Under the pieces are notes generated by a model. It made no database searches and had not been told where the DNA came from. It saw only the letters and a program-made list of their open reading frames with translations. Source: Okamejei kenojei (taxonomy: Eukaryota). Taken from it: DNA of 64,000 nucleotides. The translations under genes and the position numbers were made by a program. Shown in pieces: positions 14,843 to 59,657 of this stretch. Positions within the stretch are counted from its first letter, which is position 1; the number at the start of each line of letters is the position of its first letter. Where the stretch lies: contig CM069163.1 in assembly GCA_035221665.1 (NCBI GenBank), positions 17,546,001 to 17,610,000 of the forward strand, in the 5' to 3' direction.

Positions 14843-14879
14843 CCACATAGGCATGTTAGAGTATTTGGTGACATCTCTT

Positions 14880-19030: not shown

Positions 19031-19055
19031 GGCCAAGGTCCAGAACCAGAAGCTA

Positions 19056-19347
19056 CAGTCTTAGAATAAAGGGGAGGCCATTTAGGACTGAGGTGAGAAA
19101 AAACCTTTTCACCCAGAGAGTTGTGAAATTGTGGAATTCCCTGCCACAGAGGGCAGTGGAGGCCAAATCACTGGATGGATTTAAGAGAGAGTTAGATAGA
19201 GCTCTAGGGGCTGGTGGAATCAAGGGATATGGGGAGAAGGCAGGCACGGGTTATTGACTAGGGACGATCAGCCATGATCACAATGAATGGCGGTGCTGGC
19301 TTGAAGGGCCAAATGGCCTCTTCCTGCACCTATTTTCCATGTTTCTA
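19056..19347 (+). mobile_element. Young CR1 LINE 3' fragment
   Basis: Highly similar to 39140-39430. Confidence 0.85.
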
Positions 19348-19618
19348 ACTGTTCAACAGATGCAAAGGGATATCACCCCCACTGTTTCCCCAACCACGTC
19401 ACACACCATCATGACTTGTACATCACCGTTCCTTAATCATCACTCGATTAAAATGCCCCAACCTAACTTTCATGGATAATAAAGGTCTTTTGTTTTAAAT
19501 TAGAGCAAGTTGAATGATCTGGAACACCATTTGAAAGGAGATGTTCACACCATCCTAGCTTTGTTTTCATAGCGAGCTCACCACACGGCGGCGTCACATT
19601 CTATTTTTCATCCCGCAG

Positions 19619-19794
19619 GTTTTCAGGAGAATGAGCAAGTTCTCGAAGTCTTCAAGACAGAGTTCCAAATGCGGTTGCTGTGGGGCAGCCGGGGAGCAGG
19701 CGGCAGCCAAGCCGAGCGATACAAAAAGTTTGACAAGGTCCTGTGTGCGCTGTCGAACAAGCTGGAGCCTCCAGTCCGTCACAGTGAATTGTAG
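19619..19794 (+). CDS. SH2D3C: SH2D3C last coding exon
   Basis: ccgcAG|GT, phase 1. Encodes FQENEQVLEVFKTEFQMRLLWGSRGA...KLEPPVRHSEL, stop TAG at 19792-19794. Confidence 0.95.
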
Positions 19795-22830: not shown

Positions 22831-23892
22831 TATTAGGTTCATTAAGTAATGTAATTACCACCTTTCATAACTGTTACCTCTTTCAGTGACCTTGCAGAAG
22901 CTGTACAACAATTATTGACACCTAGAGTTCGCTGACAGACCATTATTTGACAGAGCAATTCCCTTCAGTTAACACATTCCAAAAGCCACAATTTCTGACG
23001 CAAACTATTGACCTTTACCAGTTGACAGTATTTGAGGGAGGGGGGGAGGATGTTTAGCTTAAGTGATTCTCCACAGACTCTTCTACCTTGATGAATGTTA
23101 GTACAGAGGAACACAAAACTCTTTCTATCTTGGCAACCCGGCACTGAGAGCTCTCAAATCACGCACAGCATAGGTCAAACCACAGAACTGAAACTGTCCC
23201 AAAACACCTTCATGCCCAATCTCCACCATTCCCCTTACTTTTATAAGGTGGTATTGTAAAGTTTTCATACTGCATCTCCTGTGGCTATTCAAAACGTGAC
23301 AGATATGTGTGGTCGAGGCATACACACACACAAGAATGGAGCAAAGAATATAAGCTTTCAATATGCAATTCAAGTCTTAAATCCATCCTCAATAAAGTTA
23401 AGACAACTATAGATTAGGCACCTTTTGCAAAATGTTTCAGAAGATGGTGTGTAAATGTGAAAGCTTTATCCAAAATGCACAGCAGTCCAGTTAGAAAACT
23501 TGAACCGTTTTCTGTGGAATGGAAAGAGATGGAATATATTACATATGGTTTCAATATGTTTCCTTCCAAAGGGGCAGAACTTCAAATATTTCAGTACTGG
23601 TATCATCACTGACCAAAATCAATCCAATGAACAGGCAGCTCCCCCAAGTGCTGAAGCAAATTGCAGTATCCAATGATTCGGTGCACCAGTCGTGGAAACT
23701 ATAAACACAAACATCACTTATGGCTCCGATGAACACAAAGTGCTGGAGTAACTCAGCGGGTCAGCAAGCATCTCTGGAGAACATGGATAGGCGATGTTCC
23801 GTATCAGAACCCTCTTCAGACCTTTTGGCTCCTTGCTGCCTCCCTCCTCTTTTTCAAATAAAAGTCATAATTAATTCCAAAATTAGAGCTTA

Positions 23893-24181
23893 GCGGCATG
23901 GTGGCACAGTGGTAGAGTTGCGGCCTTACAGCGCCAGTGACCCGGGTCCATCCTGACTACGGATGCTGTCTATAGCGAGTCTGTACGTTCTCACCGTGAT
24001 CGCCTGATCCTGTTACCTCCCACGTTTCAAAGACGTACAGGTTTGCAGATTAATTGGCTTTAGTAAAAGATTATAAATTGTTCCTAGTATGTAGGATAGT
24101 GCTAGTACGAGGATCGCTGGTCGGCATGGATTCCATGGGCCGAAGGGCCTGTTTCCGCACTACATATCTAAACTAAACTAA
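23893..24181 (+). mobile_element. tRNA-derived SINE (HE1/V-SINE-like), full length
   Basis: A-box tggcacagtgg, degenerate B-box, CR1-like 3' end gggccgaagggcctgtttcc, and an (aacta)n tail. Confidence 0.85.
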
Positions 24182-25037
24182 AGGAAGTGATAAAGGCAGA
24201 TGCAATTAAATAGCACTTAGATAAACACATAAATTGAAAAGGTTTGGAGAGGATTTGGGCCAGGCATATACAAATGGGATAGTTAGGTTAGGCAACTTGG
24301 GCAGCATGGATAAGTTGGGCTAAGGGGCTTGCTTCTGTGCTCTAGTGGTTGCACCATTGGGAATCTCATGCACATAACCACATTCTTGAAAGGATGGTCA
24401 ATTGGGAATGGCAGAAACACCATAAACTGGACCAAGCCTGCCGGATTTTCCAGCATCTACAGTTCCTTGATTTTCCAGCATCTGCAGTTCCTTAGATTTT
24501 CCTGCATCTGCAGTTCCTTCTTAAACACCAAGCCTGATCCTGCCCTTAGCTTGCCATCAACAACTTCCATTAGTGCATGCCTAACACTGCAAATAAGTGG
24601 AATTTGCAGTTAACTTTCACCACAGCCTGCTTCCACCCTAGTTCAGCCAAGCAATTAAGTATTGTAGCAATGTTGACTTCAATGTTTAGAGCTATAAAAT
24701 ATTATCCAGCTAATTGCATAAACAGACCTGGTATTCTCTATTATCTTGAATGCATCTTAACTTACCCAATATCTTAGTAGTGACAGAAGAAGGCAACATG
24801 GAAATGTGGGCTTTATTCTATATAATATCAGTCATTGAAATGCATTAAAGTGATATCCCTCTCGATCTTTACTCCTACTTTACAAATACTTAGGCTCTGA
24901 ATGCCAGCAGGTACATGGTATACCATCTCTTGCAGATTCCTATCAAGTCACTTATTATCTTTACTTGAAATTCCATTAAGGAATATACAAAATGCTGGAG
25001 TATCTCAGTGGGTCAGGTAGCATCCCAGGAGAACATT

Positions 25038-25670
25038 GAGTAAGTAAGTAAGTAAGTAGGTTTATTGGCCAAGTAGTCACATGCAAGGAATTTGCCTTGG
25101 TGCCCCGCCCACAAGTAATAACATGACATAATGTGACAGTTACAAATGACTCAGAAAACACTAAACATTAATGATAATAAAACATTAATGATAAAACATC
25201 ATTGATCAAGCATGTGAACCAACAAAATGCCAGATCAAAGGGAGGCTACAGATTTTTGACTGTTGAGTAGAGCAACTACTCGTGGATAAAAACTGTTTTT
25301 ATGTCTGGCTGTGGCAGCTTTGACAGTCTGGAGTCGCCTTCCAGAGGGAAGTGATTCAAAGAGTTTGTGGCCAGGGTGAGAGGGGTCAGAGATGATCTTG
25401 CCCGCTCGCTTCCTGGCCCTTGCAGTGTACAGTTCATCAATGGAGGGAAGGTTGCAGCCAATAGCCTTCTCTGCTGATCAGACGATTCGCTGCAGCTTCC
25501 AGGTGTCGTGCTTGGTGGCTGAGCCAAACCAGACCATGATGGAGAAGGTGAGAACAGACTCCACGATGGCCGTGTAGATTTGGACCATCATTACCTGTGG
25601 CAGATTGTGCTTCCTCAGCTGCCGCAGGAAGTACATCCTCGGTTGTGCCTTTTTGACTGTGGAGTCAATG
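25038..25670 (-). mobile_element. 5'-truncated Rex1/Babar-type LINE
   Basis: Minus frame reads KKAQPRMYFLRQLRKHNLP...DPSHPGHKLFESLPSGRRL...KNSFYP, followed by AATAAA and a (TTAC)n tail. Confidence 0.85.
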
Positions 25671-26199
25671 GTAGGTGACGTTTTGGGTCAGAACCCTTCT
25701 TTGATCTCAACCCGAAACGTCAACCCGATCCATATTCCCCAGGGATGCTGCCTGATCCTTCAGTTACTCCACCATTTCGTGTATTACCTTTGCAAGCGAG
25801 CATCCACTGTTTCTTGTTTCTACTAATTGAAATTACACTATCATTGTGGCTCTGAATCCCAGAACCCATTATCTAAAAGATGCGAGCGTCTTCACCAGAG
25901 GGACTGCAATGATTCAAGAAACTCACCACTATTTTCACAGGGAATCCTAGCATTAATCACATCTCTGTATAAATTAAGACATCAGCTATCTAGAATCAGC
26001 TGAAGATAAATGTATTTACAAATGATTGTTGTAAATCTTTTGAAACTTCTATGCCATACACTTTGGACATCAATTACAAAATAAATTCAAGCATGATATG
26101 GATAGATTGAAAGAAATTAAGAGATTGTAAATGAGACAAAAAAGTGAGGTTGATGTAGAATGTTGTCAATGACATTACCAAATCGTAAAACAGGCACAA

Positions 26200-27369: not shown

Positions 27370-27722
27370 CTTCGAGATGCAAATTGTGTGGGAAATAGAT
27401 AGGATGATTGCACAGTCTTTTTCCCCAGGGCAGGGGAATCAAGAAACAGAACGTAGGTTTAAGGTGAGAGGGGAAAGATTTAACAGGAACCTGTGGGGCA
27501 ACTTTTCCACTCAGAGGGTGGTGAGTATATGGAACAGATTGTCAAGCTAGAGGTAGTAGTCGAGGCAGGTACAATAACAACACCTAAAAAAGTTTGGAAC
27601 AAGTAAATGGATAGGAAGATTTTGGAAGTATATGGGCCAAATTCAGGCAAATGAGACTAGCTTAGATGAGGTAGCTTGGTTGGCATGTACAAATTGGGCC
27701 GAAGGGCCTGTTTCCGTTCTGC
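27370..27722 (+). mobile_element. CR1 LINE 3' fragment
   Basis: FKVRGERFNRNLWGNFSTQRVVSIWNRL and a gggccgaagggcctgtttcc end. Confidence 0.8.
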
Positions 27723-28417
27723 ATTACTTTATCTTAAGAAACAATAAAAGGGAGATAATCACATAAGTTAACAGTATAATAAGAACCTTCTGTAGTGCTG
27801 GATAGGACAAGGCAACATTAATGCTCGATTTATTATCCATATATTGATATTGAAGCCGTGTAGACTTCAGCAGCTGCATGCTTTCTATTTGGTTAACAAG
27901 CAAGGGCCTGGCTAATCTGGATTGAATGACCACCCCCACCTCCTCAGCCCTCAACAGATGCCTGTCCTGCTGTTGGTCTCATCTGTCATGGAAATAGGTA
28001 TCAGCATGACAATGGCATTAGCCATGCCTCCAGCTGCCACCGGATTCCACTAGTCACTGCGGTGGAATTACTGAGAGATCCCAGTTTGTTCTCTCATCAG
28101 CTTCACATAAGACGAGTTATTGCAATGTGTTACACGGGTGTGGGAGGGGCGAGGACATATTTCGACTTGTCAGTTGGAGATTATTACCACGACAGCAGAT
28201 GGGGACAAAATAACAATGAGCTGCTCCCCATTGGTTCAGTGGATAATTCATCATGTTCTGTGCAACAATGACCAACATCGCAAAGTTATGTCTCTCTTGG
28301 AAAAACATAGCATTCTCTGTATTCTCTCAATAATAATTAAACAAGCCTTTATCATCAATTCAACATTCTTAAATTCTCTAGCACCACTGTAAAAGGCATC
28401 ACGCACAGCACTGACGT

Positions 28418-29329: not shown

Positions 29330-29650
29330 GAGTTGTACAGCAGAGAAACGGATCCTTCGGCTCACTTTGTCCATGCTGACCAAGTTGGCATATTGGCTTG
29401 TCCCATTTGCCTGCATTTAGCCCATATCCTCTAAACTCTTCCTATCCATTTATCTATCCAAATGTCTTTTAAAAGTCATTATTGTATCTGCTTCTCTAGC
29501 CTCCACAGGCAGCTCATTCCAGATATAGATTACCCTCTGTGCAAAAGTTACCCTCTTAAATTTCTCCTCTCTCACCTTAAATCTCTACCCTCTAGTTTTG
29601 CAATCCTTTCCCTGGGAATAAGACTCTGAGCATTCACTTTATCCATGGCC
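29330..29650 (-). mobile_element. CR1 LINE 3' fragment
   Basis: Reverse complement of the CR1 3' end seen at 15590 and 27370. Confidence 0.7.
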
Positions 29651-29985: not shown

Positions 29986-32900
29986 TTGGAATCAGCCACA
30001 ACTCCTGCTTACGATCACCATTCACTGATGTTAAACTGCATGTGTGGATTTTTTAAATAAGGGCTTCACTCAACCGCTTTGAGCATCAACTGAGGTTGTG
30101 CCAGTGAGTTGGACAGAAATAGGAAAAGGAGCTTCCTTTCAATATCACAGGCTGAATGGTCCAGGACTTCATACTTTGATCTATTTGCATAATATGAGCT
30201 ATGCAGACTGAGGTGTGTATGCTCGCTTTTGTTTTTCTTTTTCTCTCTCTCCCTCTCAATGACGCAGCCTGATCTTGTGTGTTTTGTCTGTCCTGTCTTT
30301 TATGTGTGTGTTTTTGTGTCAATCTGTGCATGTGACTCTCCTGTCCCCTTTCTCATTCTATTTCCCTGCCCCACTCCCCCAACATTATCTACACCCAATT
30401 GATCCATAATTGATACAGCTAAAGGCCTAAAAATCATCCATTTGAACATTAGAAGTCTTTGTCCAAAGATTGTTTTAATTAGAGTTTGGATTGCACAGAA
30501 TAAACCTGACATAATAACATTTTCAGAAACATGGTTACATAGTGAAATTTGTGACAATGATATTCATATTGATAATTTTACATTATATAGAGCAGTTAGG
30601 CCCATGAGAGCTGGAGGTGTGGCTTGTTATGTGTCAACTCGCTTTATATCTGAATCTGTCATCCCTAAAGTAACCTCATCTCTCTTTGAAAGCCTTTTCA
30701 TTAGGCTAAAACTTCATGAGAATAAACATCTAATTATCGGCACTATCTATCGATCCCATCCTGTTGATCCTGACTCAACAAAGTCCCTAATTTCCATTCT
30801 CACCTCTACTGAACACCCATGTGAATTAGTGCTTCTTGGTGACTTCAATAAAAACTGGCTCGATCGCTCCTCTTCTAACGACAAAAACTTGTTTAAAAGT
30901 GTAAACCTGACCCAGTTAATCAACGAACCTACCAGAGTTCATGGCAATTCTACATCACTACTAGATTGGATTCTTGTTACCCATCCTGATCGAATTTTAA
31001 CATCTGGTGTTTTGTCAGATTGCTTTAGCGATCATTCTGCTATTTTCTGTGTGTGGAAGATTAAACCCTCCCATCTCCCTCCTAAACTTATTCGTGTCAG
31101 ACAATGTAGAAAATTTAATTATGATAATTATATGCATGACCTGATTGCAATAAACTGGGACAGGTTTCAACTTATACCAACTGTTGAGGATGCTTGGAAC
31201 TATTTATACACTGAAGTCACAAGAGTTATCGATAAGCATGCCCCCTGGAGAGAAATAAAAGTCAAGGGAAAACATTTACCATGGATTAGTGCTGATTTGA
31301 TCAACCTTTTTTAATGAGCGGGATAAAGTCTGGAAGACTTTCAGGGAAACAAAGGACCCTGCTGATTGGGAAAAATATAGGTCCTTAAGGAATCAGTGTA
31401 CGACAAGAACACGTAATGCTAAATCAAGTCATTTAAAAAAACCATCTTTCTGAAGACATGCATAACCCAAAAAAGTTCTGGAAAAGACTAAATAATGTTC
31501 TTAATAAATCAAATCAAAATATCAGCACTCAGATCGGGTCAACAAAGACATCGTTCAGGCCTGTTATATCCAATGTTTTCAACCATCATTTCTCCACTGT
31601 ATGTAGCTCTACTGTATTTGACTCATCTATTATATGTGACTTTCCAGCTACCTCTACAAGTAGAAGCTCTTTTTCTTTTCAAAAAAAAAACCTGTTGACG
31701 TTCAACATGCTATTAATGAATTAAAGGATGATTGTGGATCTGGACCAGCTGGTATTGAGACTAAATTCATTAAGTTAGGAGTTAATATTCTAATGTACCC
31801 ACTTTGCGACCTGTTTAATTTGTCCTTCTCAACTTGTACCCTCCCTTCCGCATGGAAGTGTGCCAATGTTACTCCACTGCATAAGGGAGGCGACCCACAC
31901 GATATTAACAATTACCGCCCCATCTCAATTATCAACTCGGTGGCTAAAATCCTCGAGAAACTAGTGTTCAACCAGCTATCACATTATGTCTTAACTTTCA
32001 ACATTCTATCTCCATGCCAGTCTGGGTTCAGACCTAATCACTCCACAACTGCAGCTCTGTTAAAGCTCACCAGCGATGTGTTCACTGCTTCTGAGGATGG
32101 TAAACTCACCGGTGCCATCTTTCTTGATTTAACCAAGGCCTTTGATGTTGTTGACCACTACCTACAGCTTGATAAACTTTACTCAATTGGTCTTTCTCAA
32201 AACAATCTACTGTGGTTTAACTCATACCTTCATAACAGACGCCAATGTGTTATCTTTAATGGAAGTCAATCCAATTCCTTAATTGTTGAGAATGGAGTCC
32301 TGCAAGGTTCGTCTTTGGGACCACTCCTTTTCTCTATTTTCATAAACGACCTCCCTAATATTTGTTCTGACTGTCAAACACAACTATATGCTGATGATGC
32401 AGTGCTATATACATCTAGTACTAACAAGTCTGAAATTGAAAGATCCCTTCAATCAGATCTTACTTCTGTTCAGAAATGGCTATTATTCAACAAATTAATT
32501 TTAAATAAAAATAAATCATGCAGTATGTTATTTGGTACCAGACAAGGCCTTGGTAATTCTGTAGATCTGACTATATCATTTAATGAAGGATCACCATTAG
32601 AACAAGTATTGAACTTCAAATATCTTGGTGTTTGGCTCGACCCAACGCTTTCATTTACGCAGCATAGTGAGACGATTACTAAAAAACTTAGCTGTAATCT
32701 AGCTATTCTTTACCGCCATATAAATTGTATCACCTTTCAGATGAGAAAAAGAATCGTCTCTCAACTACTATTACCAACACTGGATTATGCTGACATTGTC
32801 TATCAGAATACATTTGATACACATCTTCAACCCCTCAATGTAGTTTATAATAGTCTCTGCAGATTTATTTTAAGGTGTCCATGTCTAACTCACCACTGTT

Positions 32901-33652
32901 CTATGTACGAAACTCTAAACTGGTTATCCCCCCACGCTCGAAGATGCCACCACTGGTTCCAGTTAATCTTTAAATGCATCCATTTCAATTACCCTTCTTA
33001 TTTAAAACAAGACCTATTACCATACACACCCTCATATTCACTAAGACATATTCAGCAACCCTTCTTTTTCATTCCAAGAACTAACAAAGAAATTGAGAGA
33101 CGTGCATTTAAATTCAAAGCTCCTTCTGACTGGAACACTCTGCCTAGTACCATAAGAACTATTAGCTCATTTCGTCTATTTAAGAAAACACTTTTACCCT
33201 TCCTTATAAAACCATGTACCTGTTTCTAGTATTAGTCTTCGAGCTCCTTTATCTAGCTTGCTCTGTGTGTGATCATTTGGCATAGCTATTGTATATGCAT
33301 TGCCATTACACGTATGTGTTATTGTATTGCATAGTGTAACAATATTATGTCACAATACTATGAAATATATCATGTAATAACGTACGATGTATGATAGGTG
33401 GTATATGGTATTATGCATCAACATTATGCTGTAACACATAACTTATTATTATTGGATATGTAAAGTCAATTAACAATTGTCATAAACTATAACATGTGGG
33501 GATGGAGGGGTTTTGGGATTGGTGTGTGGGTAGGTGTGTCAATGAGAGCCTCTATGTATGTTATGTCTTGTGCTGTATGTTCTACGTTGGACCCCCTTGA
33601 AAACGAGATGACTGTTTATCTCAAGGGGTTATCCATGAATAAACGTGAACGA
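29986..33652 (+). mobile_element. Near full-length non-LTR retrotransposon of the L2/CR1 group with a single APE-RT ORF
   Basis: APE ORF followed by RT ORF and an AT-rich 3'UTR. Terminal hairpin CCCCTTGA...TCAAGGGG, then AATAAA and a TGAA-type tail. Possible TSD acttgaatg at 29977-29985 and 33653-33661, so the 5' boundary is tentative. Confidence 0.85.
30403..33229 (+). pseudogene. LINE ORF2 (apurinic endonuclease plus reverse transcriptase), frameshifted
   Basis: APE motifs HLNIRSL, SETWL, LLGDFN, LLDWIL, SDH. RT motifs NYRPISI, QSGFR, FLDLTKAFD, QGSSLGPLLF, YADD, KYLGV. Frameshifts at about 31312, 31440 and 31690. Confidence 0.92.
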
Positions 33653-36537
33653 ACTTGAATGCGTTGTGATACTGAACCAGCTATCAATGCCATGTAAAAA
33701 TTATCCAGTTTGGGCCTGATCTTTGTAAACATTTCTGTGCTATTCAGCACAATGACTAATGACTCTGTAATCAAGTTTTGTTTAGCAGCAGTGATTAGTC
33801 AAAGTAATGAACAGCTGTACTCTCTTTAACACAGAAAATAGTTAAGTACCCGCTTCAGTCGGGACAAACGGTTCAAAGTATTTACTGTTATTTCAAGCAT
33901 TACCTTCCTCCTATGATAATGCAGACCAGCTTCCCCATCATTGACTCCATCTACACACGGTTGAATAGACAAGTTACAATCACTCTATGTTTGCACATTC
34001 ATTAGCCTCTCTGGGAACGTTATGATCATGGAACTTAATGCCAGCAAGCACCCATGGTCCAGGATAGATTGGGAGAATAACACACTTCCTATTCAAGCTC
34101 CAACTTTACCACCTTTCTCTTTCGTTTAATGCACTGCTTTAAGCACAAAGTCTCCATTGTAATACCTTTTTGCTTTCAGTGCCTCTCTTTCCATCCTTCA
34201 GCCAACAATGCTTTGGATGCCAGCTTCACGTAGTGATTCACTGCAGTCCCATCTGTCCACCGCAGCTGTGTGGCTGCAGCTTAAAGTCCGCTGTCTGTTG
34301 AGGTGTAATGCATCATGTCCAGCATGTCAGTCAGACATTCAAGGGCTTCAGTTACAATTGGGTAGAAAGCTTTCCAAACAACAGATGTGTTAAAACAGCT
34401 CGATGGAGGAGTATCTGGAATGTTCTTCGCAGTCTAGGTTTAACGAAGTTCACCTCACAAAAAAAAATCAAAATGCCAATGTGTTGCTAAACAAGATCTG
34501 GGGTCCTCGCAGAAGGATTGAGCTGCAGGAAAGTATCACAGTGACCAGTTGGGATATTTAATCCCACTGCCATTCATTAAGATCAGTTATCCTGTATCTC
34601 AACTTTGTTTCCTTAGTGCAAATCTCTTGACACAATGACCCAACAAAAAGCTCCATCACTCTCACTCTCAACTCCTTTGAGAGGGGAGGAATCCCAGGTA
34701 TGTTTGGTTAATTGAAAAAAGAAACAGCGTGGAAACAGGCCCTTCGACCCATCAAGTCCACGTCGACCATCGATCACCCTGGTTCTACGTTATCCCACTG
34801 CGATTAACATTTGAAATAGTTTTCAATTATCTAACTCTATCCCTTCCTCACCTGACCCACAATAGCCCTGCGTTGTCATTCAGAAAGTGAACTCTGATTT
34901 GTGCTTCCCTGTCACCAGTGTCATTCAGACTAAACGTTATATCTTTTCCGTCAAATCTGGCTTAGTGGCGACTTGAACAACACATTACCACTGGACTGAT
35001 TCCTTGCCTTTTAACAACCACTCTAGCAATACATTTATAGCTTTTGAGTGCTCATCGCAGACTTTATTACATATTTATTACACTAGCCGCTTCCATTCAA
35101 GTTTCATTGCACTAAAGTAACCGGCACAATAAATGTAAGGAGAAAGCCATGATCTAATCAGGATTAGAACCAGACAACATGTAATGTTTTACACTCTGGT
35201 CTCCGCTGCTGTTGAACAGAGAGGTGACACGGGGACGACACGGAGTCTGAGATCCATGCCCCCTTGTGGTGAGGTATGTGCCAGTTCAACGAAGGGCAAG
35301 AATAAAGGCTCAAACATGAGCTTTGATATTTCATTCTGTACATCTACAATACCCAAGCTCGATTCACATCCACGCATCTGCAGTTATTTTTCCCGTGATG
35401 GTGGAAGGGCAGAATTTGATTTCCATTATTTTCTTTCTCCAGAACAGACTCTGTTCCAAATCACCCTGGACACGTGTGGACACACGATGCTGCTGCTGTT
35501 TTAGTGATCCTGATGGTGACTTGCTTCCAATGGTTCAATGGTTTATTTTACTACCATGTGCACACAGAGAGAGTGCAATGTTTGTTCTGCATGCTATCCA
35601 GTCAAATCATACCATACATGACTTGCTGAAGTTTGAGTAATTACATTGTTTTTGTTACTAAGCTAAGCATCATAAATTGGGCAACTCAAACCCAATTAAT
35701 CTGAATTCTGTTAAAATAAACTGAAACCTGGAAGGTAATTATCTGTAAAAGCAATGTTAGAAATGTCAGATTGTTGTAAAAGCCTCACCAGAGCCCTTTT
35801 GAGAATGAAGCCTGCTTTCCTTACCTGGTCTAGCCTACGTATTTATGTCTCCACACCAGCACGGTTGCCTCTGGACTGTCCTCTGATACTGTTTTCAGGT
35901 TGTGTGGTAACTGGGAGAAAAAAATAAAACATTAATCTCACAATCTCAAGCAACACGAGAAACATCAGAATTTTGAGAAAATATTAAAATAGAAACCAAG
36001 TGATTAAAAGGACATGTTCGTGAAACACAAAGTGCTCGAGGGAGTCAGCGGGTCAGGCAGCATCGGTGGAGGGATGGGATAGGCAACGTATAGAGTTGGG
36101 ATCCTTCAGACTCAAAATCCCGCTCTCAACACAAGTGGGTGCTTTGATTTGCTGCCACCCTGACCCAGGAGACTGTTGGCAGTCTGCTCCTCGATGAATG
36201 TTGGACAATTGTTTTCCTTACACTGAACTCTGAAATATTGCTTGGATTGAATTCATGAAAGTCTTCAACATGCTCCAAAGACTAACAAGTCTGTACATTT
36301 TATCCTTGCAGTTCCCACATATTTAGTGTCCATCCATTGATCCATTAAGAATTACGATAATGATTGTGAAAGGTTTGATACTAACTAAAACTGTCACTCT
36401 CCCAGTCTTTGCTTTGAACCTCGAGTCCATTCTCTATGCACATCAGTTCAATGGCCGAACAGCCGAATCATGCTCCTAGAAACTATGAATGCTGCTTCAG
36501 TGAACCCCCTCATGTTCTATAATGGCAATTTATGGAT

Positions 36538-36758: not shown

Positions 36759-37591
36759 TCTGGCATCTACCGTTTTACCTATCTCTCTCTCTCTCTCCAT
36801 ACTGTCACTTTCTTATTTACTTGTTTCACCAAAAGCAAAAACTAAAAATTCTAATTTTTAAAAACGTTGAGAGACACAGGAAAACTACAGATGCTGGAAC
36901 CTTGACCAATATATAAAATGCTGTGGAGGGAATGGACTGGCAATGTTTCAGATCGACCCGAAAAGTCACTTATCCATGTTCTCCAGAGATGCTGCCTGAC
37001 CCGCTGAGTTACTTCAGCATTGTGTCTATTTAAAATAAACTTTAGGACTGATTGTTCGTGAATCAACAGAACGAACAGCCAGCAGGTATCTACAATCTGT
37101 ATAAAAATCATATGAAATATAAAAAAAGTTGTGTTTACATTTGATGTTGTGTAGAGGCAGAGGCGTTAATACTGCAGACCAGTGAATACAGAAACATGAG
37201 AGCTGATGAGAAATTTGAACGGAGTCAATGTGAATTGTTCATGTTTCTGCATCTTGTATTTTGCAAACATTTAACATTTATTTAAAAAAAAAATGTATTT
37301 AACCTGACAGACACAGAATACAGCCTGGGTGTGAAATACTACAGAGGGAAGGTCTTACAACACTTGTTATCCTTCCGCTGTTGTATGTCATCCTTACATT
37401 TGCAAAAGAGTTTCAAAATTCCTCTCTCACTTTGCTCAGGAGTTATCAATTAGTGTTTGGTTAACAAAGTAAAACGTACAAAATTATGACGTTACCATGC
37501 TAGGTTTCAATATAAACTTTAAAATGCAAGTAGCTAAGAAATTTTATGTCCCGGATTTTCATTTATGATTCATAAAGGTACCATTGAATTG

Positions 37592-37729
37592 GTAGACTGG
37601 TCTGAAGAAGGATCGAGACCCGAAACGTCACCTATTTCCTTCGCTCCATAGATGCCACCTCACCCGCTGAGTTTCTCCAGCATTTTTGTCCACCTTCGAT
37701 TTTCCAGCATCTGCAGTTCCTTCTTAAAC
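37592..37729 (+). mobile_element. Short Penelope-type element with minimal hammerhead ribozyme core
   Basis: GGT-CTGAAGA-A-GGATCGAGACCC-GAAAC-GTC-ACC at 37599-37632, with a near-TSD attgaattg/atggaattg. Confidence 0.7.
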
Positions 37730-39042
37730 ATGGAATTGAATCGAATCCCCACCTGCCTGGAATCGCTAATAGCCCAATGCTGCTACCTGCTGGTAATAAA
37801 AAGAAATTGCAACCCCAACTCAGCCTCACCATCAATTACCGTCATAACTCTGCCAATCCACCCAATGACTGTACTAAAACATTGACAAAAAGTGGATTGG
37901 ATGAAAGGCTGTTCCACATTGTCTGATGTTCAGACTTCCGATGCAACACTACTTCAAATGTTAAAAATATTTTGTGAAATGTAGTTTTAAAACCAGGATG
38001 CACTGAACTCAGCCATTGATGGGCGATATTGTTCTTAATGAAGGTCAGCAGGAACCTCTCCACCCCTCCTAAGAGTTCTTCATGGAGATCTATTGCTGTC
38101 CAGACTGAATGATGGGCATAGTACTGATTTAAAAGTTTTTAAAACGTAACTGCTATACAACTGTTATTTCCATATTTTTACACATTATCTTATAACTCTG
38201 ATAAGTATTATGTGCTGCAGGCTCAATGTCCTGAATAAGTCAAAGGCCAGTCAAAATAGAATTGATTAAATAATAATTATCAATTTTCTCTGTAACTGAT
38301 GAAGGCAAAAATGTGTGTATTACGCTGTATTAAACATATCATGGTAGTTTATTACATGTAAAAGTGCTTCACCTGTAATTCAGTAATACAAGGTTTTCTC
38401 CACAATGCATGCCGAGATCAGAGAGCGAAGTGCAGTTAGTGAGCAGAGGCTGTGGACAGAAGTGGAATTGTGCAGTTGATTTGAAAGAGGAAGAGATCAT
38501 CTGTGATGACGAAAGGTTGAATAGGAGGGAGAATTAAGAGCGGCTTCAGTGTTGTGCAAGATTCCAGTGCACTCACAAAACCTTTAATTAACATTAAATA
38601 TGTGAAAGGCGAGTCATGGCCTCAGAAACGACTCTCCAAGTCCCCATGATTAGGGCCAAGACATGCCAAGAAGTTGATATTTGACATGCAAGTTATCCAT
38701 GGCAATGACAGTGATTAAGGCAGCAGCAACTATATTTGTGCTCACTTATTCAGTCAGATGATGTAGTGACATACAAGGCATGTGAGGCTGGCTCCTCATG
38801 GCAAGGATTGTAAATTATGATCGAATAGGAGCAAAAAAAAGGAATATTGAAAATCATGACTGGAGTATGAAGTGTTGAATAGAATGGAACTTTGACAGCT
38901 TGAATCCTACAATTTCTTAGACATCACTGCAACATCATTCACCTGGCAATCTACTACTTCCAGAGTGCTAAGGGATGTTTGTAACCACACCATATGACTG
39001 CACTCCCCTTCCCTCCATTAACTAACAGTGAAGAAAGGAGGG

Positions 39043-39433
39043 AGGGGGTCTTATAGAAACATGTAAAATTATAAAAGGACAGGACAAGCTAGATGCAGGA
39101 AAAATGTTCCCAATGTTGGGCGAGTCCAGAACCAGGGGCCACAGTCTTAGAATAAAGGGGAGGTCATTTAGGACTGAGGTGAGAAAAAACGTTTTCACCC
39201 AGAGAGATGTGAATTTATGGAATTCCCTGCCACAGGGGGCAGTGGAGGCCAAATCACTGGATGGATTTGAGAGAATTGGATAGAGCTCTAGGGGCTAGTG
39301 GAGTCGAGGGATATGGGGAGAAGGCAGGCACGGGTTATTGATAGCGGACGATCAGTCATGATCACAATGAATGGCGGTGCTGGCTCGAAGGGCCGAATGG
39401 CCTCCTCCTGCACCTATTTTCTATGTTTCTATG
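39043..39433 (+). mobile_element. Young CR1 LINE 3' fragment
   Basis: GGLIETCKIIKG...ESRTRGHSLRIKG remnant and a (ttctatgt) tail. Confidence 0.85.
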
Positions 39434-40110: not shown

Positions 40111-42499
40111 AGATTCCTTTAACTACCTTCCGTCAAGAATATTCTTCTGACTTAGTGACAACTTTCAGGTCAGAAGGTGTATGGTTCGAATGTTTTTCTG
40201 TAGTTCTGGCAATGGGGACTGGAACACTGGTCCTGATACCTAAGTTGGCATCTTTTAGAACATTCACATCTGCACGAGCATGGCAGCACGGATTAAAAAT
40301 CCAGTTTAATATCCTCATCGATTCCTTTGACTTTGGAGGCCTGCCCTCATCTGCCAGAGCATTGCCAGTCAGAATATTGGGCAAAGTGCCAGGATTTGCA
40401 GATTCAGTGGAGTCTCAGATGGAGACTGATGCCAATAATGGGAGGCAAGAGAGAGAACTGAATAATCATGATGAGAAGAGTCCAGGAGACTAAGAATCTG
40501 TGCTGACCTCACTTTGCCATCATACCTTCCACACTATAGCCTACATCAGGATGGAAAATCTCCTTAGTGCAGTACCTGCTGACTGTATAATCCCTATCAA
40601 ACTAATTAGGGAGCTCACAATTAAACAACACTCGCGATAGTGTACTTAAAGGCTTATAAAGGCTAATTAGCCTGCTCTGTATGAGTGAAACATTTGAAAA
40701 TAATTAAACTGTTTGCTTTAAAGATTTTTTTTCCAGACTATGCATGCTGGAATAATAAATAGGAATACACATGATAAATCTGTGCCATTTCTTCAAACTT
40801 TTTCAGCCGAATGCAGCTAAGGTTTAAAAGACCCTTAATTTGAATGATTAGTAAAAAACTAATTGGGTTAATCATCTGGTGTTAAACAAGTGCAGACTAC
40901 AATACAGACCCAGATAAGCAAACAATGAGCAAATTAAATGAATTCCTAAATCATGCAGCCTGACTTGTGTTGTAGGCACGATACACAGGGGAAGAAGTTG
41001 CCGATCGTATTCCCACATACATGATCTTTCTCCTAAATTGTTCCATCTAAAGGGTCTCTGTTCATTCCCTTTACACATGCTGCCTGACGTACTGAATTCC
41101 TCCCGCACTTTTATTCACTGAAGGAACTCAGCAGGTCAGGCAGCATCTGTGGTATGGGTTGACATTTCAGGGTGACACTCTGCAGCAGAACTGAGAGAAA
41201 ACTGACCTTCCTCTCTGTGGGTACACAAAAGGCTGGAGAAACGCCAGAAAAAGGCCAGTTTCACTTCCTCTCTGTGGCTCCAGATTCAAGTATCTCCAAC
41301 CTCTGTCTACCTTTTACTGCTCCATGCAAAGCTTACTCAAAGTACACCCACTTTGAGGAAGTTCTCCTCCTCTCTCGGACAAGGGTTTTGTGAGACCGTC
41401 TCTCACCGCTCCTCCTCTATGATTCCTCCTGCTCCCCCGCCGGTCTGACCCGGACTCACTATTACAGCCATGTTTAGTCTGAAGAAGAGTCTCAACCCAA
41501 AATGTCATCTGTCCATTCCCCTCCACAAATGTTTCCTGAGCTCGTAGTCACACAGCACGGAAAAGAGGCCATTCGGCCCAACACATCCATGCTGGCCAAG
41601 GTGGCGCATCAAAGCTAGTCCCATTTGCCTGTGTTTGGCCCATATCCCTCTCAACCTTTCCTATATTGCAAGTTCCTCTCGCGCTTTGTTTGTGCTCCTG
41701 CATACTTTACCTGAATATGCCAAGAGCCTTTATCCAAGGGCTTTTGTCACTGCTTCTTAAGAAACCATCAGTCACATTTCTCACATAATGTGGAAAATAT
41801 TGAGGCTGTCTTGAGGGTAATAGTCCAAGATAAACTGACAAATCTGCTTTACTGAAACTGTCAGAGTCTTAAACACAAAATGATACCTAAAACTATCCCT
41901 TGGCAAAGGACTAACACTTTAAACCAGGAAAACACAACCTGATGACTGTGTTTAATCATTGCTATTATGAACATCTTTAAATATGTTATAATATATGCTC
42001 TTTATTTGGATACTACCATTGTGAGTTACAGGGAAAAGTAGTCAATATTCAACACTTTCCTTCCTCCATTCCCCTCCCCGAGTATTTTGTGTAACTTATA
42101 TGGCGGACATTTCTGCTAGGCATTAGTCCTTCAATGGGCACGTTTTAAAGTATCACGACATATATAAGTTGTGTCCTTTTCCTTCTATTTTGATCAGTAC
42201 AATCACTACCTACCTTGACTAGAACACAAAGTGCTGGAGGAACTCAGCAGGTCAGGCAGCATCTGTGGAGGGAATGTTTCAGGTCTGGACCCTTTTTTCC
42301 CCCCAGACAAATCTAGAACATTTCACCAGAAATAATGTTCCATGGAATGAGTCTTTTACTAATAAGTTCTCAGTTGTTCCTAGATGTAAAATAGTAATTC
42401 ACAATTAAAATGTTACATTCTGTAACAATCTGCTTGGGGTTATCGACAAGGTGAAGATCACCACTTCCCTGTTCAGATGATTTCACCACCAGGTTCTAT

Positions 42500-49800: not shown

Positions 49801-52800
49801 CAGTTGGCACACATTCGAAGGAAGGATGGCCTCAGGTGGAATAATACCAGTTTTGGACTATTTGTTCACCACAATCCCTTTCTCACATATCTTTCATTAC
49901 TAATTCAACTTCGATTTGCTGTGGGACAATAATGGATCTGGGATTCAACGTGACTGCTTCACAGTACAGTATATGCATATTTAACCATTGAAACAGCAGT
50001 ACTGGGTGGGGGGGGGGGGGGGGAACATTCACCGATAATCGAGAACAGCGGACAGCATGAAACTAAAATCCCTTGCAGAAATGCAAACCAAGCGCTAGAC
50101 GCTTCCTTGGATCGCTCACTCCTGGCTCTCTGTGTGCACAGTTAATGTCAACTATTTCTTCACATTTTCACTCGGACGATGTTAAGTGTACAAGCGATTA
50201 CAAACAGCTGAAACCCCAGCAGTTTAAGCACACAGTGGTTTGTAGGCAGCTTTAGGGAGAGCAGCAGAAACGCCAACAAATACACAGGTGAACATGCAAG
50301 AAAAAAAACGTGTCACACGACCAGCAACTCCACTTCTTAAAGCCAACAAAATAATGATGCAGAAAATGTGACCATAACTTTCATTAAGGTGGGCACAGGC
50401 AGAGCATCAGGGCGAGCATGCAGACTGGAAAAGATGGACTGATGTTGGGCAGTGCTACAAACCAAAATGATAATAATGATGTGATGGTGACAAATAAATC
50501 TACCAAACACCAGATACAGGTACTGCATGACCACAAGTGCTCCACTCTGTCATTCCAGTATCTACATGCTTTCACAATTAAAACTCGATCCACGCTAAAA
50601 ATATTCTACCTTTTCTACTTGGCTAAATGCTCACAAGAAAATGGGACTATGGCAAGCAAACGGGACTATGGCCTTCAAGTATCTTCTTTGCATTTAATGG
50701 GCAAAACCTCAGAAAGTTTCTCTATTTTACCAAGTTATCTCGGCTGGATATGTGTGGAAGAGGTGGAGAAAAATCAAATATAAAACTTAAAAACTCAGTA
50801 GTGCTGAGGATGAATGAAAATTAACTGTACTTCAGTCAATTGTTGGCTGTACTTTTTACAACTTCATATAATTTTATCTTCTGGGAAGATTAACTATGAA
50901 TGCGGTTTGCAATGCAAGTTCATCAAAAGTGAGGTATGTATGTATCTCTCAGGGCTTCTGAAGCCAAGATTATAAGCGTCACAATTTTGACAGGACTAGC
51001 ACTGAAGTGGTGTCATTTCCCTGAACACTGAAAATGCTCTGTGGCAACCCAGATGATCCCTTAACTTCTTATATAGAACAAACTAAACTAAATTAACTTA
51101 CATTGTCAATTACTTCATTTTACTATCCCTCCCCAGCCAAGAACTACCTTTGGCTCAAATAAAGATTTAATGAACAACATCCACCCAGACAATGGACGGT
51201 TACTGTGGTGATGAAGTACATGTATTCTGTAAAGTAGATTTCAAAATTCACATATTTAAAAAAAATTTTAAATGGGCAAAATTTTAGACAGAGGCATGCA
51301 TCAGAAAATTGCATTTTTTGACATTTACGGAGTATCCGACTTAATTAGAGCAATAGATGGCATGCCATGAAATAAGAGCAAGCACTTGCACCTTATGATC
51401 ATATAATTTTTTCATCTCGCTGGTTTTGCTTTTGATTATTAAAAACGAAACCAGTCTGGTTAGTCTTCCATTTTGAATATTGTTAAGCTGAAGAAGGTGT
51501 CCTTGTGTACCAGCTCGCCCGTGATTCATGGACCATGACACCACCTTAGGTACCTAGAGTCCAGAGGGAGAAAGGGACATGGGTTAGTGACAATGACAAA
51601 GTTAAGGGGACAATCAGAAACCTCACAGTTGGCGCAACTAGAAAAGAGCCTACAAGGAAGCATTCAATAATGCTGATGTCGTGAACATGTCCTCCAGTTC
51701 TTAACCTAGCGACACCTTTTTGTATGGTACACCAATAAAATGAACAATTTTGAATATTGTTCATTACAATTTGAGATTGAAGGTATAAACGAACAACATT
51801 AAAAATATTAATAACATTTTTTTTAAATATTCAAAATTTGGCCAGAGGGAAAAGAAAAGAGAAATACAATACAACTCTCGATGAAAGGTGATCCATATTA
51901 ATTACTGTCACATAGACATTCTGAATCAGATATTCCAACAATATTTAGTGGCTGGGCTATAGGTGCCATTGACTTTCAGTGTTAGATCATTAGCAAACAT
52001 TTATTTTATGGAATAAAAACAGAAAACACTGGAAATATTCAGCAGGCCAGGGAGTATATGTGGGAATCAAGAAAAAGCTCAGTTTTCCTTCCCATTGATG
52101 CAGCCTGACCTACTGAGTATTTCCAGCATTTCCTGTTTTATTTTATATTTCTAACATTGGCAGTTTAAAAAAAAAAGATTTTCATACTTTTATGGAATTA
52201 AAAACATCCATATTAAGAGGGGCTCCTTATTCTCCAATTTTAGCAGTTCATAAACATATTGAAGCAATGTTAAATCTTACACTGATACAGCACTATGTTC
52301 TGAATTTAAATATACAGGTGCAAATGTCCGATAACATAGTTAAGGAGACGGCTGGTTTGAATGTAAACTGAAGATTCACCATAATTGCAGATCCAAAAAC
52401 AAAATAATAAATGTAAACCTCCTCTCCAAAATATGACAGATTCAGTGATGTCTCACAAAGCAGTCCGATTTCTGTTCCTTTGCAGAGGGCGTGAATCTCA
52501 GACCCCACTACACATGTTCTGGTGATTACACATTAAACAGCAGTTTGCCAAGCTTTTTGTTTTCACTGCAAATCCATGGTCTAAAACACACTTTCTCCAG
52601 CACAAGCACAAATAGGGCATTACGGCAGAAAATAAGTCATGGCCCCAAAAGACAGAGGAGATTAAAATATTCTCTTTTTAATAAACATTAGAAAGCATTT
52701 GAAATCAGACACTACAAACAACCACACGTCAATTCTAAAATACCGCTTCAAAGAAAGATGTTTCCACTGTGAAAACATCCAATAGGTTGGCAATGATTTT

Positions 52801-53894
52801 ACATCGTTAGATGTGTTTTGTACACCTATGTTCTGATTTTCTTAAAATTATTGCAGATTAAAACAAAAACAGTTCTTTAAACCCTTTTCTTTAAATCATG
52901 CAACCATTACTTTGAAAAGTGATTGGTAATCATAACTGAAGAAAGTTCAATGACAACATTTAAAAGACACTTGGACAGAGACATGGATAGGAAATATTTA
53001 GAGGGAATGTGGATTGAATGTGGGCAAATGGGACTAGCTTCGATGGGCATCCCGGTTGGCATGTAAGAGTTGGGCCAAAGGGCCTGTTTCCATACTGTAT
53101 GGCTCTTTGAGCCTGGCGGGTGGACAATTTCAATGCCTGCATGCTTTTGATATCTGTCATCACTAATCCTCTTCAAACCGTCATGTAATATTATGATTAC
53201 AAACAGCACAATTTACTGAAAGTGAGTCAGAGGTTTATTGTCTCAAGTATCTTCTATGAAGGCACTAAAACAGACCAGTTTTGAGGCCCAAAGTATAAAC
53301 CATGTTAACAAATCAAATCTCAATAACATTCATTTACACAGATGCAACAAATGATGAGATGCCAAATCAGCTCTCTACCCCACTGCTTTGCCAATCTTAG
53401 TTACGCTGCTGTGGGGACATGCCCAAGAGGCAAAGAGTCATCATGTAGATATGAGAATAAGTGGGATTAATGGGCTGTCTTCCTGCACATTTTAACTGGT
53501 TGGTTGACAGAAGCACGAGTGGATGTTTGAAGGCCCAATAGCTGATTGTTCTCTGCAGAAGATGCCAAGTCTGGGGCTAATGGGGATGGAATTAAGAATG
53601 TTTCTAAATAAACAACAACCTATCTTTATATTTCTTTGGAAAGATTTAAAACCATTTTTTCCCATTTTCACTAAATCACATTGCTATAGTTTGATATGCA
53701 ATATGTATACATAGTAAATGTTCCTTGTCTTCATGCAACAACTGGAATATCTACATGATACATTAAAATTGCCACCATTCTGACCAACTAGTAAAAAAGT
53801 TAAATATTTAAAATACATAAGGAGCAAGACCAATACACTTGACTCCTCAGACCTGTTTTGTCACACACCAAGATCATGCCTCAACATAATGTGC

Positions 53895-54021
53895 AGGAAG
53901 GAATGGCAGATGCTGGTTTACACCGTAGATAAACACAAAATGCTGGAGTAACTCAGCGGGACAGGCAACATCTCTGGATTGAAGGAATGAGTGACGTATC
54001 GGGGCGAGACCCTTCTTCAGA
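53895..54021 (-). mobile_element. Short Penelope-type element with degenerate hammerhead core and 16-bp TSD
   Basis: Flanked by cctcaacataatgtgc at 53879-53894 and 54022-54037. Minus strand reads CTGAAGAAGGGTCTCGCCCCGATACGTCAC. Confidence 0.75.
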
Positions 54022-56469
54022 CCTCAACATAATGTGCCACAGCACCGTTTTTCTGCCTTAGAACACAGGAACAGGCCCTTCGGCCCACAATATCTTCTTC
54101 TACCTAGATTCCTTTACTATCAATAAATTATCCCTCTCGGCTTTGAATGCAATTCCAATCCTCAACGGCCTTCCAAGATAGGGAATTCCGCAGATTCACC
54201 TGTCTGAGAAGACATTCCTCATTTCAGTGAATTATAATTCTAGACTCCCGAACCAAGGGCAGTATCTCTCCTGTTTAGCTTTCTGTGTTGAGTTCATGCA
54301 CTTTGCGTACCATAAAAAAAAAACAATTTAACTTTCTGACCTTTCGATTGTTACAAAAATTAAAATTGCACTATTTTTCCATTCTAAATCTATCTCAAGG
54401 TTATTATATTAGATGTTTTCCCCAGAAAACGCATGACATGGGTGAACATTTAGGTATATTTGAAAACTAGGCTATTTGAGGAAGAGAATCTGAAAGATTG
54501 CAGATGATATAGGTTTAAAAGACAATCTTTGATCCCAAGAACAAGATAACAGATTCTATATTCTCCAGCCAGATGAAACAGCTCCCAACATTTCAAGCCT
54601 GCTAAGAAATCTATAAGATCACTTCTAATTCTTACAAAAGACAAAATCTACTGCCTCACAGGACAAACCCAAATCAAAATAGTAAACCTCATCTGTAAGA
54701 ATAGACAAGTTGTGGCATTTGGCAGGAATTTTTAGCCTACGACCTCCCTCGGTACAATCGAGACTGGAAAATAAGACCATCCCAACCAGTCTGGCTCTGT
54801 GACTATACCATCATGTCGATTCAAAATAGGATTTCCTGGTTAGAACAATAAGCTTTGTCTCTTAGGCTAGGGGTGTGCTGACACAATTATATCTACTGTA
54901 TCTGACACTACAACAAAGAAGCTTAAGTATGGAAGAATGACAATATTGTAAAGATCAGGCAGCTTGCCTGATATATAAAATTATATAATATTAACAGTTT
55001 TGTCAGAACCTCAGGGACAACTGAGAGGCTGGGATATCAAGGTACAATGAGGCTGGTTTGCAAAATTAAACCAAGTATTATTTGCTCATAAAGAACTATA
55101 CGATGCGACCTGTAGGTTAGAATTCACAAAGTACAGTTTGGCTTAATGGATATTTTCCCAATAGTGACACCATGAAGGTGCAAAACAAAGGACAGATCAC
55201 TAGAGTGTTAGCAGCTGATGGTTGGTGCTCAGTTCTGCTTTGGTGTTGATGATTCTGCATTCACGTAGGAATATAATGTGGATTTTTATTTTAAGATGCC
55301 AGGAAGGTTGTTTGCTGATGAATTCTCGCGTAGAAGCCGAGCACAGGGACGGGGTATTGTTCTGCTATAAAGAAAAGGTTCCGCGAATTTATCGACCACG
55401 ACTGGCATGGTGAAAAGTGCTCACGGGACAATATTCATACTAATTTATCCTTGGCTCTGTGAGCTATTGATGTAAGGTTCATTTTAAAAATCATCTTATG
55501 TCCTTCATTGCACTGAACACTCTCCTGCATCATATTTGAACTATAAGTATTTTTTTCTTTAAGAGCCATTTCCTTCCAAAACAGACATAACACTTAAGGT
55601 AACTAATAAAATTGCTGTATAAACCAGCTAGCTATTGTAATGTAAAAAAACAATACTGGTAATTGATGGAATGGAGGAGGACATTTCTGGTTGTTGAAGG
55701 AGTTTGCAGTTACAGAAATCTCTACATAAAGGGCTTCTGCACTTAACCGTTTGCGAGTGTTGTACACTGACTTATACAGAGGACAGCTTGCACCAGTGAA
55801 GTGCATGGGAGAGAATTCCACCTCAGCCTCTTGTGCTAAATGCAATTAGACAGGCAGTTTCCATCAGTCACTTCAATGGAACTAAATTGCACAAGGCTAA
55901 CATGTAGCAAGTACTGTATCTGCACCGTTCACCCAAGTACCCAGAGAAGTTTGACCCTGCATTGCATGCAAAGTATGTCACTCAGTCTTCTCGACATCAA
56001 TCAATCTCTCTGCTCATAAATACACAGTAAACAGATGAAGAGGTGGAAAATTGAAACAACACAATGAAACAAATTAAAACTGGTGCAAACAGCTAATAAA
56101 TAACAAACATCTTGTGTACCGAATGGGTACGCTGCTATAATTATAATCAGCCCAGGCAGTCATGCAAATAATATTTTTAAAATTCTCTTTTTCTAAACAA
56201 AAAATTAACAAAAATTATAAAAATGTAAAAACTGTATAATTAGGTACCAGCAAAAATGCAGATGGACCATTATTTAAAAGATTAAATAGTATTGTTAAAC
56301 AATGATATGCAATTCATACAGTTACTTACAAAATTATTTATACAGAGGTTTATGCTGGATGCAGTTCATTGTGGAGAAATATGTAACATGGGTGTTTCTG
56401 TATAACAATTAGCCCTTCAGTGACTTAATCTATCAAATTGGCGCCCACTCAGAACCATTCTTTCAGCAT

Positions 56470-57395: not shown

Positions 57396-57574
57396 CTAGA
57401 TATAAGTCATTGCACCTTTAACACTTTTGTCCAAATAGACCTCCACATAAGACGTGGGAACATATCCTTCCTCGTCTTCACTTCGTCGAACTCTTGTCCA
57501 CCCATCTCCTTTATCTTCCTCTATCACAGTCAGCGTCTCTCCCTCTGTAATCGTTATAGTTCCTTCATTCTGAC
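57396..57574 (-). CDS. FNBP1: FNBP1 SH3 exon ending ...KGAMTYI* (internal alternative donor after 57416)
   Basis: attcAG|GT, phase 1. Encodes [58 protein letters not shown], stop TAG. Confidence 0.94.
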
Positions 57575-57654
57575 CTGAATTGAAACCAGATTCACAAATC
57601 AGGTTACACCAGACGCGATACAGATAGCACTAGGAAAGACAAACATTGTGTTCA

Positions 57655-59642: not shown

Positions 59643-59657
59643 TGCTAGTCTTTATAC

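Follow-up and report, generated by a model that had tools for sequence, protein, structure and literature searches.

The repeat copy at positions 37600-37729 of the window (the whole 64,000-nucleotide stretch of Okamejei kenojei DNA that was analysed) contains the letters of a minimal type-I hammerhead ribozyme. The family to which it belongs is probably one end, the terminal repeat (pseudo-LTR), of a Penelope-like retrotransposon (PLE) that has been highly successful. Its copies are short and decaying, and the hammerhead likely worked in the source element. Because no PLE protein gene could be linked to the repeat, its PLE membership rests on anatomy.

The motif was read on the plus strand between 37599 and 37632, with the letters that the preliminary description of this DNA had given and with the predicted cut, as placed there, after C37629. 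The parts below were read from the sequence; the whole was delimited by its letters and the published PLE consensus.

37599-37632, plus strand: minimal type-I hammerhead, whole
37599-37601, plus strand: GGT, 5' strand of stem I
37602-37608, plus strand: CTGAAGA, first core box
37609, plus strand: extra A
37610-37621, plus strand: GGATCGAGACCC, stem II region, with an A-C mismatch
37622-37626, plus strand: GAAAC, of which 37622-37625 is the GAAA box
37627-37629, plus strand: GTC, predicted cut after 37629
37630-37632, plus strand: ACC, 3' strand of stem I

Positions within the hammerhead follow the usual numbering convention. The assignment to the PLE kind of minimal hammerhead, already proposed in the preliminary description, agrees with the PLE consensus (NNN CUGANGAH G..C GAAAN palindrome NU H NNN), and the loop-less palindrome ACGU that had been described was found in the focal copy at 37625-37628 (positions 15.2-16.2). 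The CUGANGA-H and GAAA boxes and the NUH site are present in the focal copy and in the window majority, and the geometry is that of the Acropora digitifera Neptune hammerhead (PMC4209133). The two stems needed correction. For stem I, the letters GGU/ACC are there, but the third pair (G37599) is not the usual family base: upstream-extending contigs from public sequencing runs read ...CTACAATCA before 37600 in four of four runs, and the usual stem I of the family is therefore 2 bp, like that of Drosophila virilis Penelope (PMC4209133). GGU was thus rejected as the stem I strand of the family, A being the upstream majority and the G of the copy at 54020 belonging to its duplication. For stem II, the single mismatch (A-C) was as stated, but five base pairs around a two-nucleotide loop are impossible, and the family stem consists of 4 bp and a tetraloop.

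Taken by themselves, the two core boxes occur in the window hardly more often than chance would give (12 matches against 6.9 +/- 2.7 expected, a number reached by 5 of 100 shuffles). The full descriptor combined the published PLE consensus with pairing (at least 2 bp in stem I, three of four stem II pairs, and pairing of 15.2-16.2). With its thresholds, which were chosen with the focal copy already known, the focal copy was the sole match in the 64-kb window, and none of 300 resampled (shuffled) windows gave one. The Rfam scan that had been suggested as a check did not recover the hammerhead: no such family reached the gathering threshold, nor E<=10 on 37500-37800, and the search returned three weak matches only (E 2-10), all unrelated to hammerheads. 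Motif scans of viral, metagenome and prokaryote genome contigs gave no matches, as expected for a vertebrate repeat.

A profile built from eight window copies found 28 pieces at E<1, and the 26 pieces at E<0.1 merged into 19 loci; in the reversed window, used as a control, the search gave one match, at E 0.78. The loci cover 2,171 bases, or 3.4% of the window, and the repeat is 100-130 bases long. The family is thus as dense as had been claimed (more than 10 copies per 64 kb), and all 13 other coordinates named in the preliminary description fall on family pieces. Besides the focal insertion, the loci are as follows.

1158-1318, both strands: head-to-head inverted pair, with a tail confined to the minus arm and a mutated core (U4, G8)
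12946-13064, minus strand: single decayed copy with tail, antisense in an SH2D3C intron
14631-14842, both strands: head-to-head inverted pair within an SH2D3C intron, of which only the minus arm has a tail, minus-arm stem II broken
17712-17809, plus strand: copy without the first core box, sense in an SH2D3C intron
23728-23824, minus strand: single copy without tail, with a short abutting duplication of seven exact bases
24440-24527, plus strand: three tandem copies of the ~25-nt tail unit alone, with exact 10-bp direct repeats either side (24431-24536)
24977-25037, minus strand: fragment downstream of the hammerhead, from the profile
25657-25814, both strands: head-to-head inverted pair with a shortened minus arm, from the profile
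36021-36113, minus strand: decayed copy with four core changes, from the profile and core scoring
36876-37030, both strands: head-to-head inverted pair joined at the stem II TCGA palindrome (36953-36956), minus-arm tail seen by eye past an internal deletion
41047-41191, both strands: decayed convergent (tail-to-tail) pair, in contrast to the six head-to-head pairs
41474-41551, plus strand: copy with G12 changed and without the 3' part, from the profile and core scoring
42221-42297, minus strand: copy without the first core box, between 8-bp direct repeats
52016-52164, both strands: two downstream halves as a head-to-head inverted pair, of which only the plus arm has a tail, with a 15/16 direct repeat around it
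53895-54021, minus strand: full short unit with A14 changed, between exact 16-bp target-site duplications (53879-53894, 54022-54037)
62300-62622, plus strand: copy keeping ~280 nt of pyrimidine-rich upstream sequence that ends ...CTACAATCAG, antisense in an FNBP1 intron, G12 changed, left edge approximate
63006-63194, both strands: head-to-head inverted pair within the FNBP1 span, of which only the plus arm has a tail
63881-63956, minus strand: fragment without the first core box, sense in the FNBP1 span

Public data point to the same abundance. The data of all runs consisted of contigs, and one run, X19, is flagged 'probably DNA'. About 53,000 related contigs per run matched 37300-38049 in three DNA runs (organisms A, B and C). 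Summed depth was ~20 on the flanks versus 2-16 million on the element, an element-to-flank ratio that is 1-2 x 10^5 across the hammerhead and peaks at 6-9 x 10^5. Extrapolation of the window density to an assumed genome of 1.9 Gb gives 5.6 x 10^5 copies. The copy number of the family is ~10^5, as an order of magnitude only, depth not being the same as copy number. This density looks far above the 4,000-9,000 motifs of coelacanth and Xenopus, which are counts of intact motifs only (PMC4209133).

The anatomy of the copies is that of PLEs. Published signatures of these elements are 5' truncation, an adjacent inverted 5' copy, a palindromic junction, a 30-40-nt tail at one end, 8-10-bp duplications and solo terminal repeats (PMC8557442, PMC3846280). 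The skate family shows an inverted 5' arm, a one-sided tail and, in some copies, variable duplications. Head-to-head inverted pairs account for 6 of the 19 loci and a convergent pair for one, and the junctions of inverted pairs often lie on short palindromes, such as TCGA at 36953-36956. A tail of ~30 nt is present on exactly one arm in all five pairs in which it could be read (four by profile, one by eye). The 3' ends of the 26 pieces are bimodal (10 at profile positions 95-103, 10 at 119-125 and 6 shorter), which places two shared ends ~30 nt apart, ~60-70 and ~95-100 nt past the predicted cut. Loose contig ends beyond ~37730 are unrelated AT-rich sequence (agreement 0.35), and the flanks of the 3' ends show a slight excess of AT (0.63 versus 0.59 in the window). 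Flanking duplications scored 16, 12 and 10 at three of the 19 loci and below 10 at the other 16, whereas among 150 random intervals one scored at least 10 and none at least 12. Head-to-head inverted terminal repeats, palindromic junctions, a ~30-nt tail on one arm, variable duplications and solo terminal repeats are likewise features of Adineta vaga Penelope (PMC3846280) and of PAc from the anole (PMC11167929), and 3' ends ~100 nt past the hammerhead cut are shared with endonuclease-containing PLEs (PMC3846280, PMC11167929). Unlike those elements (Penelope/Poseidon, Neptune), the family showed no open reading frame, so that a clade is not assignable. No PLE reverse transcriptase or GIY-YIG gene was present among the 177 window reading frames of at least 70 aa, and the longest upstream copy, at ~280 nt, is too short for one. 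Protein searches with translations of the repeat found nothing PLE-like at E<=10; a low-complexity repeat protein (E 2e-4) was rejected as a PLE link.

The two 3' ends also fit the geometry of PAc, by analogy. In that element, copying starts 111-118 nt into the ORF and the hammerhead cuts at +26 (PMC11167929), which by subtraction puts one start site 85-92 nt past the cut. Reverse transcription begins at two internal sites separated by the tail, with uncleaved RNA as its main template, and cleavage by the hammerhead requires protein (PMC11167929). One difference is that the PAc ORF starts at stem II (PMC11167929), where the motif of the skate family is without an ATG. If the skate element behaved likewise, its reverse transcriptase and GIY-YIG endonuclease would nick the target and copy uncleaved RNA from two internal sites, and the optional tail and the duplications would follow from this. 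The tail-only insertion at 24431-24536 looks as if priming at the tail had aborted repeatedly. The inverted arm could then be added by fold-back or template switching at short palindromes. As established for other PLEs, the loop-less stem III of the source element would confine cleavage to dimers or to RNA helped by protein.

The 5' ends of the copies are unusually sharp. Of the 11 arms whose first box can be recognised, 10 match the upstream sequence no further than 1-4 nt from C3, before the core; a uniform fall-off would place ~3% of arms in that window, under a rough model. The one window copy that continues upstream past the boundary is that at 62577. In the contigs, loose ends before 37600 share the ending ...CTACAATCAG in four of four runs, with low overall agreement (0.36-0.38), and hundreds of contigs per run continue upstream in the same family; the long and short forms are therefore one sequence pool. 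Such a pile-up at the hammerhead edge is not described in the available portions of the reports on Adineta vaga Penelope and PAc (PMC3846280, PMC11167929).

We tentatively suggest that the skate genome holds short insertions made by PLEs, on the order of 10^5, each with its 5' end fixed at the first base of a hammerhead. These would be either run-off ('strong-stop'-like) cDNAs of a transcript beginning at the ribozyme edge or a ribozyme-headed SINE-like family that PLE proteins drive. The sharp start points to copies that ran off at a transcription start, or to a short non-autonomous master; it is unlike gradual 5' truncation and fits the short master equally well. Three readings of the boundary fit: an RNA start at an initiator-like TCAGT, a splice acceptor, and the short master. 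The first relies on a short initiator consensus, for which a chance match is about 1 in 20. An initiator-like TCACT has been noted in a rotifer pLTR (PMC3846280). An RNA start of this kind is the simplest account of where copying usually stops: the enzyme would run off 1-4 nt upstream of the core, and a minority of read-through transcripts would give longer copies that reach further upstream, like ordinary 5'-truncated PLE copies. For the second reading, a pyrimidine tract at 62520-62576 (0.76-0.79 C+T) ends in CAG directly before the first stem base of the ribozyme. The sequence reads as a 3' splice site or as the initiator-like TCAGT. Tract and CAG could together form a splice acceptor by which the 5' strand of the ribozyme is exchanged, as in Drosophila virilis Penelope, whose intron extends to the 5' end of helix I (PMC4209133).

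The third reading is the most serious rival to the pseudo-LTR end, although we consider it unlikely as an account of the whole family. One or more masters of ~130 nt, derived from a PLE end, would be transcribed independently and copied in trans by PLE proteins in the manner of a SINE. Such masters would produce the sharp arm starts, the clean unit between 16-bp duplications at 53895-54021 and the very high abundance. Non-autonomous PLE derivatives are known in Chlamydomonas (PMC8557442), and mobilisation of the pLTR alone in trans has been described in a rotifer (PMC3846280). Against them stand the upstream extension of the copy at 62577 and of hundreds of contigs per run, and the fact that no tRNA-like head was seen by eye within the 130 nt.

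Very unlikely is the retrozyme-like family of the preliminary description, that is, a true animal non-LTR retrozyme in which paired hammerheads cut tandems into circular monomers that are reverse-transcribed and dispersed in the window. The family resembles animal retrozymes in being short and non-coding, with a type-I hammerhead and PLE ancestry (PMC7229834; bioRxiv 10.64898/2026.07.22.740005). Retrozymes derived from PLE ends are reported in one chondrichthyan genome, that of the one cartilaginous fish examined (bioRxiv 10.64898/2026.07.22.740005). They differ in forming head-to-tail tandems of ~150-450 bp, delimited by the cut site, with a complete hammerhead per unit and circular RNA (PMC7229834; bioRxiv 10.64898/2026.07.22.740005). 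The skate copies are single or inverted and mostly broken, and no head-to-tail repeat of the unit was found at any of the 19 window loci. The 5' ends of the pieces fall at profile positions 3-26 and 41-81 and none at the cut (~position 35); no piece begins or is permuted there, and the sequence upstream of the core is not the 3' end of the unit. In a few contigs the 3' end does lead back into the 5' end (from 37732 into 37600 in three contigs of X5 and one of X6, and similarly in X19), but these joints are rare beside the loose ends of X5, ~690 of them upstream and ~400 downstream. Moreover, the hammerhead here is of the minimal PLE type, whereas characterised retrozymes are mostly canonical (PMC7229834).

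Most copies of the family are decayed. All 11 scored core positions are kept in only 2 of 12 core-spanning pieces, and the second of these (14751) has a broken stem II. That the core is more conserved than the flank, as had been expected, is borne out overall (134/150, 0.89, versus 964/1228, 0.785; Fisher p=0.001, on pieces that are not independent and of which eight built the profile), but the best downstream block reaches 541/625, or 0.87. The excess fits constraint on the sequence of the source elements followed by drift. In 13 copies, 86.5% of stem II cells are paired, with the G10.1-C11.1 pair and a paired stem II both found, and the window majority is predicted to fold into stems I and II. 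The covariation in stem II by which the earlier proposal was to be judged did not appear: no two-sided change occurred there among the 13 aligned copies, and the two found overall were reached by 168 of 500 shuffles, within one lineage of little depth. One-sided, compatible variation was seen at the first stem I pair (U-A/U-G, from A>G at 37630 in 57% of depth, X5). At the cut base, C>T makes up 38% of depth, which CpG decay also explains, and a second version of stem II was seen in loose ends. The hammerhead likely worked in the source element rather than in the window copies; 'ribozyme-bearing', as the family had been called, suits the ancestral source and not most of its copies.

It is highly improbable that the repeat is the end of another class of retroelement (a LINE tail, DIRS or an LTR piece) whose hammerhead letters are coincidental or vestigial. 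The lack of a linked PLE ORF and of an Rfam match would agree with this, and L2/CR1/Rex dominate the batoid repeat tables, in which, in the portion available, Penelope is unnamed (bioRxiv 10.64898/2026.10.27.761883). Against it, the motif matches the PLE consensus in full, including the extra nucleotide, the G10.1-C11.1 pair and the palindrome; a one-sided tail with inverted arms is described as peculiar to PLEs (PMC8557442); and no poly(A) or simple-repeat tail was seen in the family copies.

The focal copy is most probably an inert relic. Its features are listed here.

37600-37729, plus strand: focal insertion, from the hammerhead 5' edge to the long 3' end, bounded at 37600 and ~37730 by depth and loose ends
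37698-37729, plus strand: optional ~30-nt 3' tail, recognised from the bimodal 3' ends of the family
37594-37599, minus strand: six bases, the reverse complement of the family start CAGTCT, proposed from the sequence
37582-37591, plus strand: left copy of a candidate target-site duplication, 9/10 identical to 37729-37738

The 9/10 duplication does not score above the random control. The six bases before the insertion could possibly be a miniature inverted arm that supplies the G of GGU, to judge from their letters. The insertion is common to organism B, whose contigs span both junctions, and a second sample of organism A has the same hammerhead part; the contigs of organism C (X9) cover the flanks in part only. 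Relative to the majority, the focal copy is changed at 37612 and 37615-37616, in stem II, and at 37656, 37657 and 37691, where another letter makes up 89-97% of depth; the stem II changes are private to it. Its loop GA (37615-37616), where the majority has TC, equals a micro-inversion within the stem II hairpin. With this GA a rival hairpin arises, and because that hairpin captures the stem I strand, the pairing probability of stem II is below 0.01 in the focal copy, against 0.99 in the window majority alone and 0.67 in its whole unit. Stem II costs +3.3 kcal/mol in the focal copy versus -3.4 in the copies at 1223 and 62577, which have intact stems. A focal double hammerhead comes to +2.7 versus -15.2 kcal/mol for the best dimer, in nearest-neighbour energies that ignore core contacts and are of comparative use only. 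The fold of 37592-37729 as a whole is unremarkable (z = -0.21), and no same-strand partner was found within 400 nt. The focal copy is thus predicted not to fold into a working ribozyme. That the host kept it as one, for example in a long 3' UTR or non-coding transcript, is scarcely credible: its standing as the sole full-descriptor match and its presence in other samples would suit such a role, but its base changes, its weakened stem II and its want of a partner do not, and at ~11% change per core position about one in four copies keeps all 11 by chance. In the PLE reading, the focal copy would have kept its core letters by such chance during drift after insertion, while its stem II was damaged.

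Both the minimal hammerhead class and the scattering of its truncated copies, single or on opposite strands, have already been published (PMC4209133). PLE-end hammerheads are known from many animals; as a class they are not novel. The 56 motifs of Fig. S3, as extracted from that paper, include none from a cartilaginous fish (PMC4209133). Our literature searches found no paper describing this skate hammerhead family, and the motif was absent from the supplementary files searched. An automatic repeat-library entry (Repbase/Dfam) probably exists, and the supplements of bioRxiv 10.64898/2026.07.22.740005 may list the family. If the PLE reading holds, cartilaginous fishes join the list with an unusually abundant family, which batoid repeat tables may leave unlabelled. 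Its many copies, with their sharp 5' ends, two 3' ends and fold-back junctions, would then make it possible to test the PLE replication model by computation alone, including its open points of internal priming and the role of the hammerhead. If the short insertions are indeed PLE-made, they would be a genome-scale natural record of where PLE RNA starts, where reverse transcription starts and how the product folds back.

Two host genes lie in the window. The coding exons of SH2D3C map on the plus strand from ~3.3 kb to 19,791, and FNBP1 is on the minus strand (exons 62938-62816, 59802-59635 and 57575-57399), its last exon being 100% identical to a Leucoraja erinacea protein over 59 residues. 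No additional host exons were found among the 177 window ORFs of at least 70 aa, a search that covers neither shorter exons nor long UTRs. The two genes (3322-19791 and 57399-62938) are arranged tail to tail, as, presumably, are the human paralogue pairs of SH2D3C and FNBP1. The preliminary description had placed copies in introns of both genes. Copies do occur in both gene spans, but the focal copy is not in a mapped intron; it lies between the SH2D3C and FNBP1 stops, ~18 kb past the stop codon of one gene and ~20 kb past that of the other. Six loci are between mapped exons or on the upstream side of the mapped exons of FNBP1, and a seventh gene-span locus is 5' of the first mapped SH2D3C exon. 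None of the five sense-oriented arms in the two spans has an intact core, a number without power for a test of orientation. The inverted pairs in the gene spans are predicted to form long hairpins in pre-mRNA (14631-14842, -108 kcal/mol; 63006-63194, -82; 1158-1318, -49), which on this folding would be possible substrates for A-to-I editing or Dicer. Only ~68 nt separate the pair at 63006-63194 from the FNBP1 exon 62938-62816, on its acceptor side.

Other repeats were seen as well. A nearly intact LINE ORF2 (AP endonuclease and reverse transcriptase), which we take to be of the L2/CR1 type, is intergenic on the plus strand at 30403-33229, with open stretches of 303 and 521 aa, and its few breaks suggest a young or horizontally acquired copy. 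Further repeat families of ~300 bp have several copies in the window, at 2651-2960, 4534-4830, 19038-19347, 23896-24185, 27381-27731, 29334-29648 and 39124-39432.
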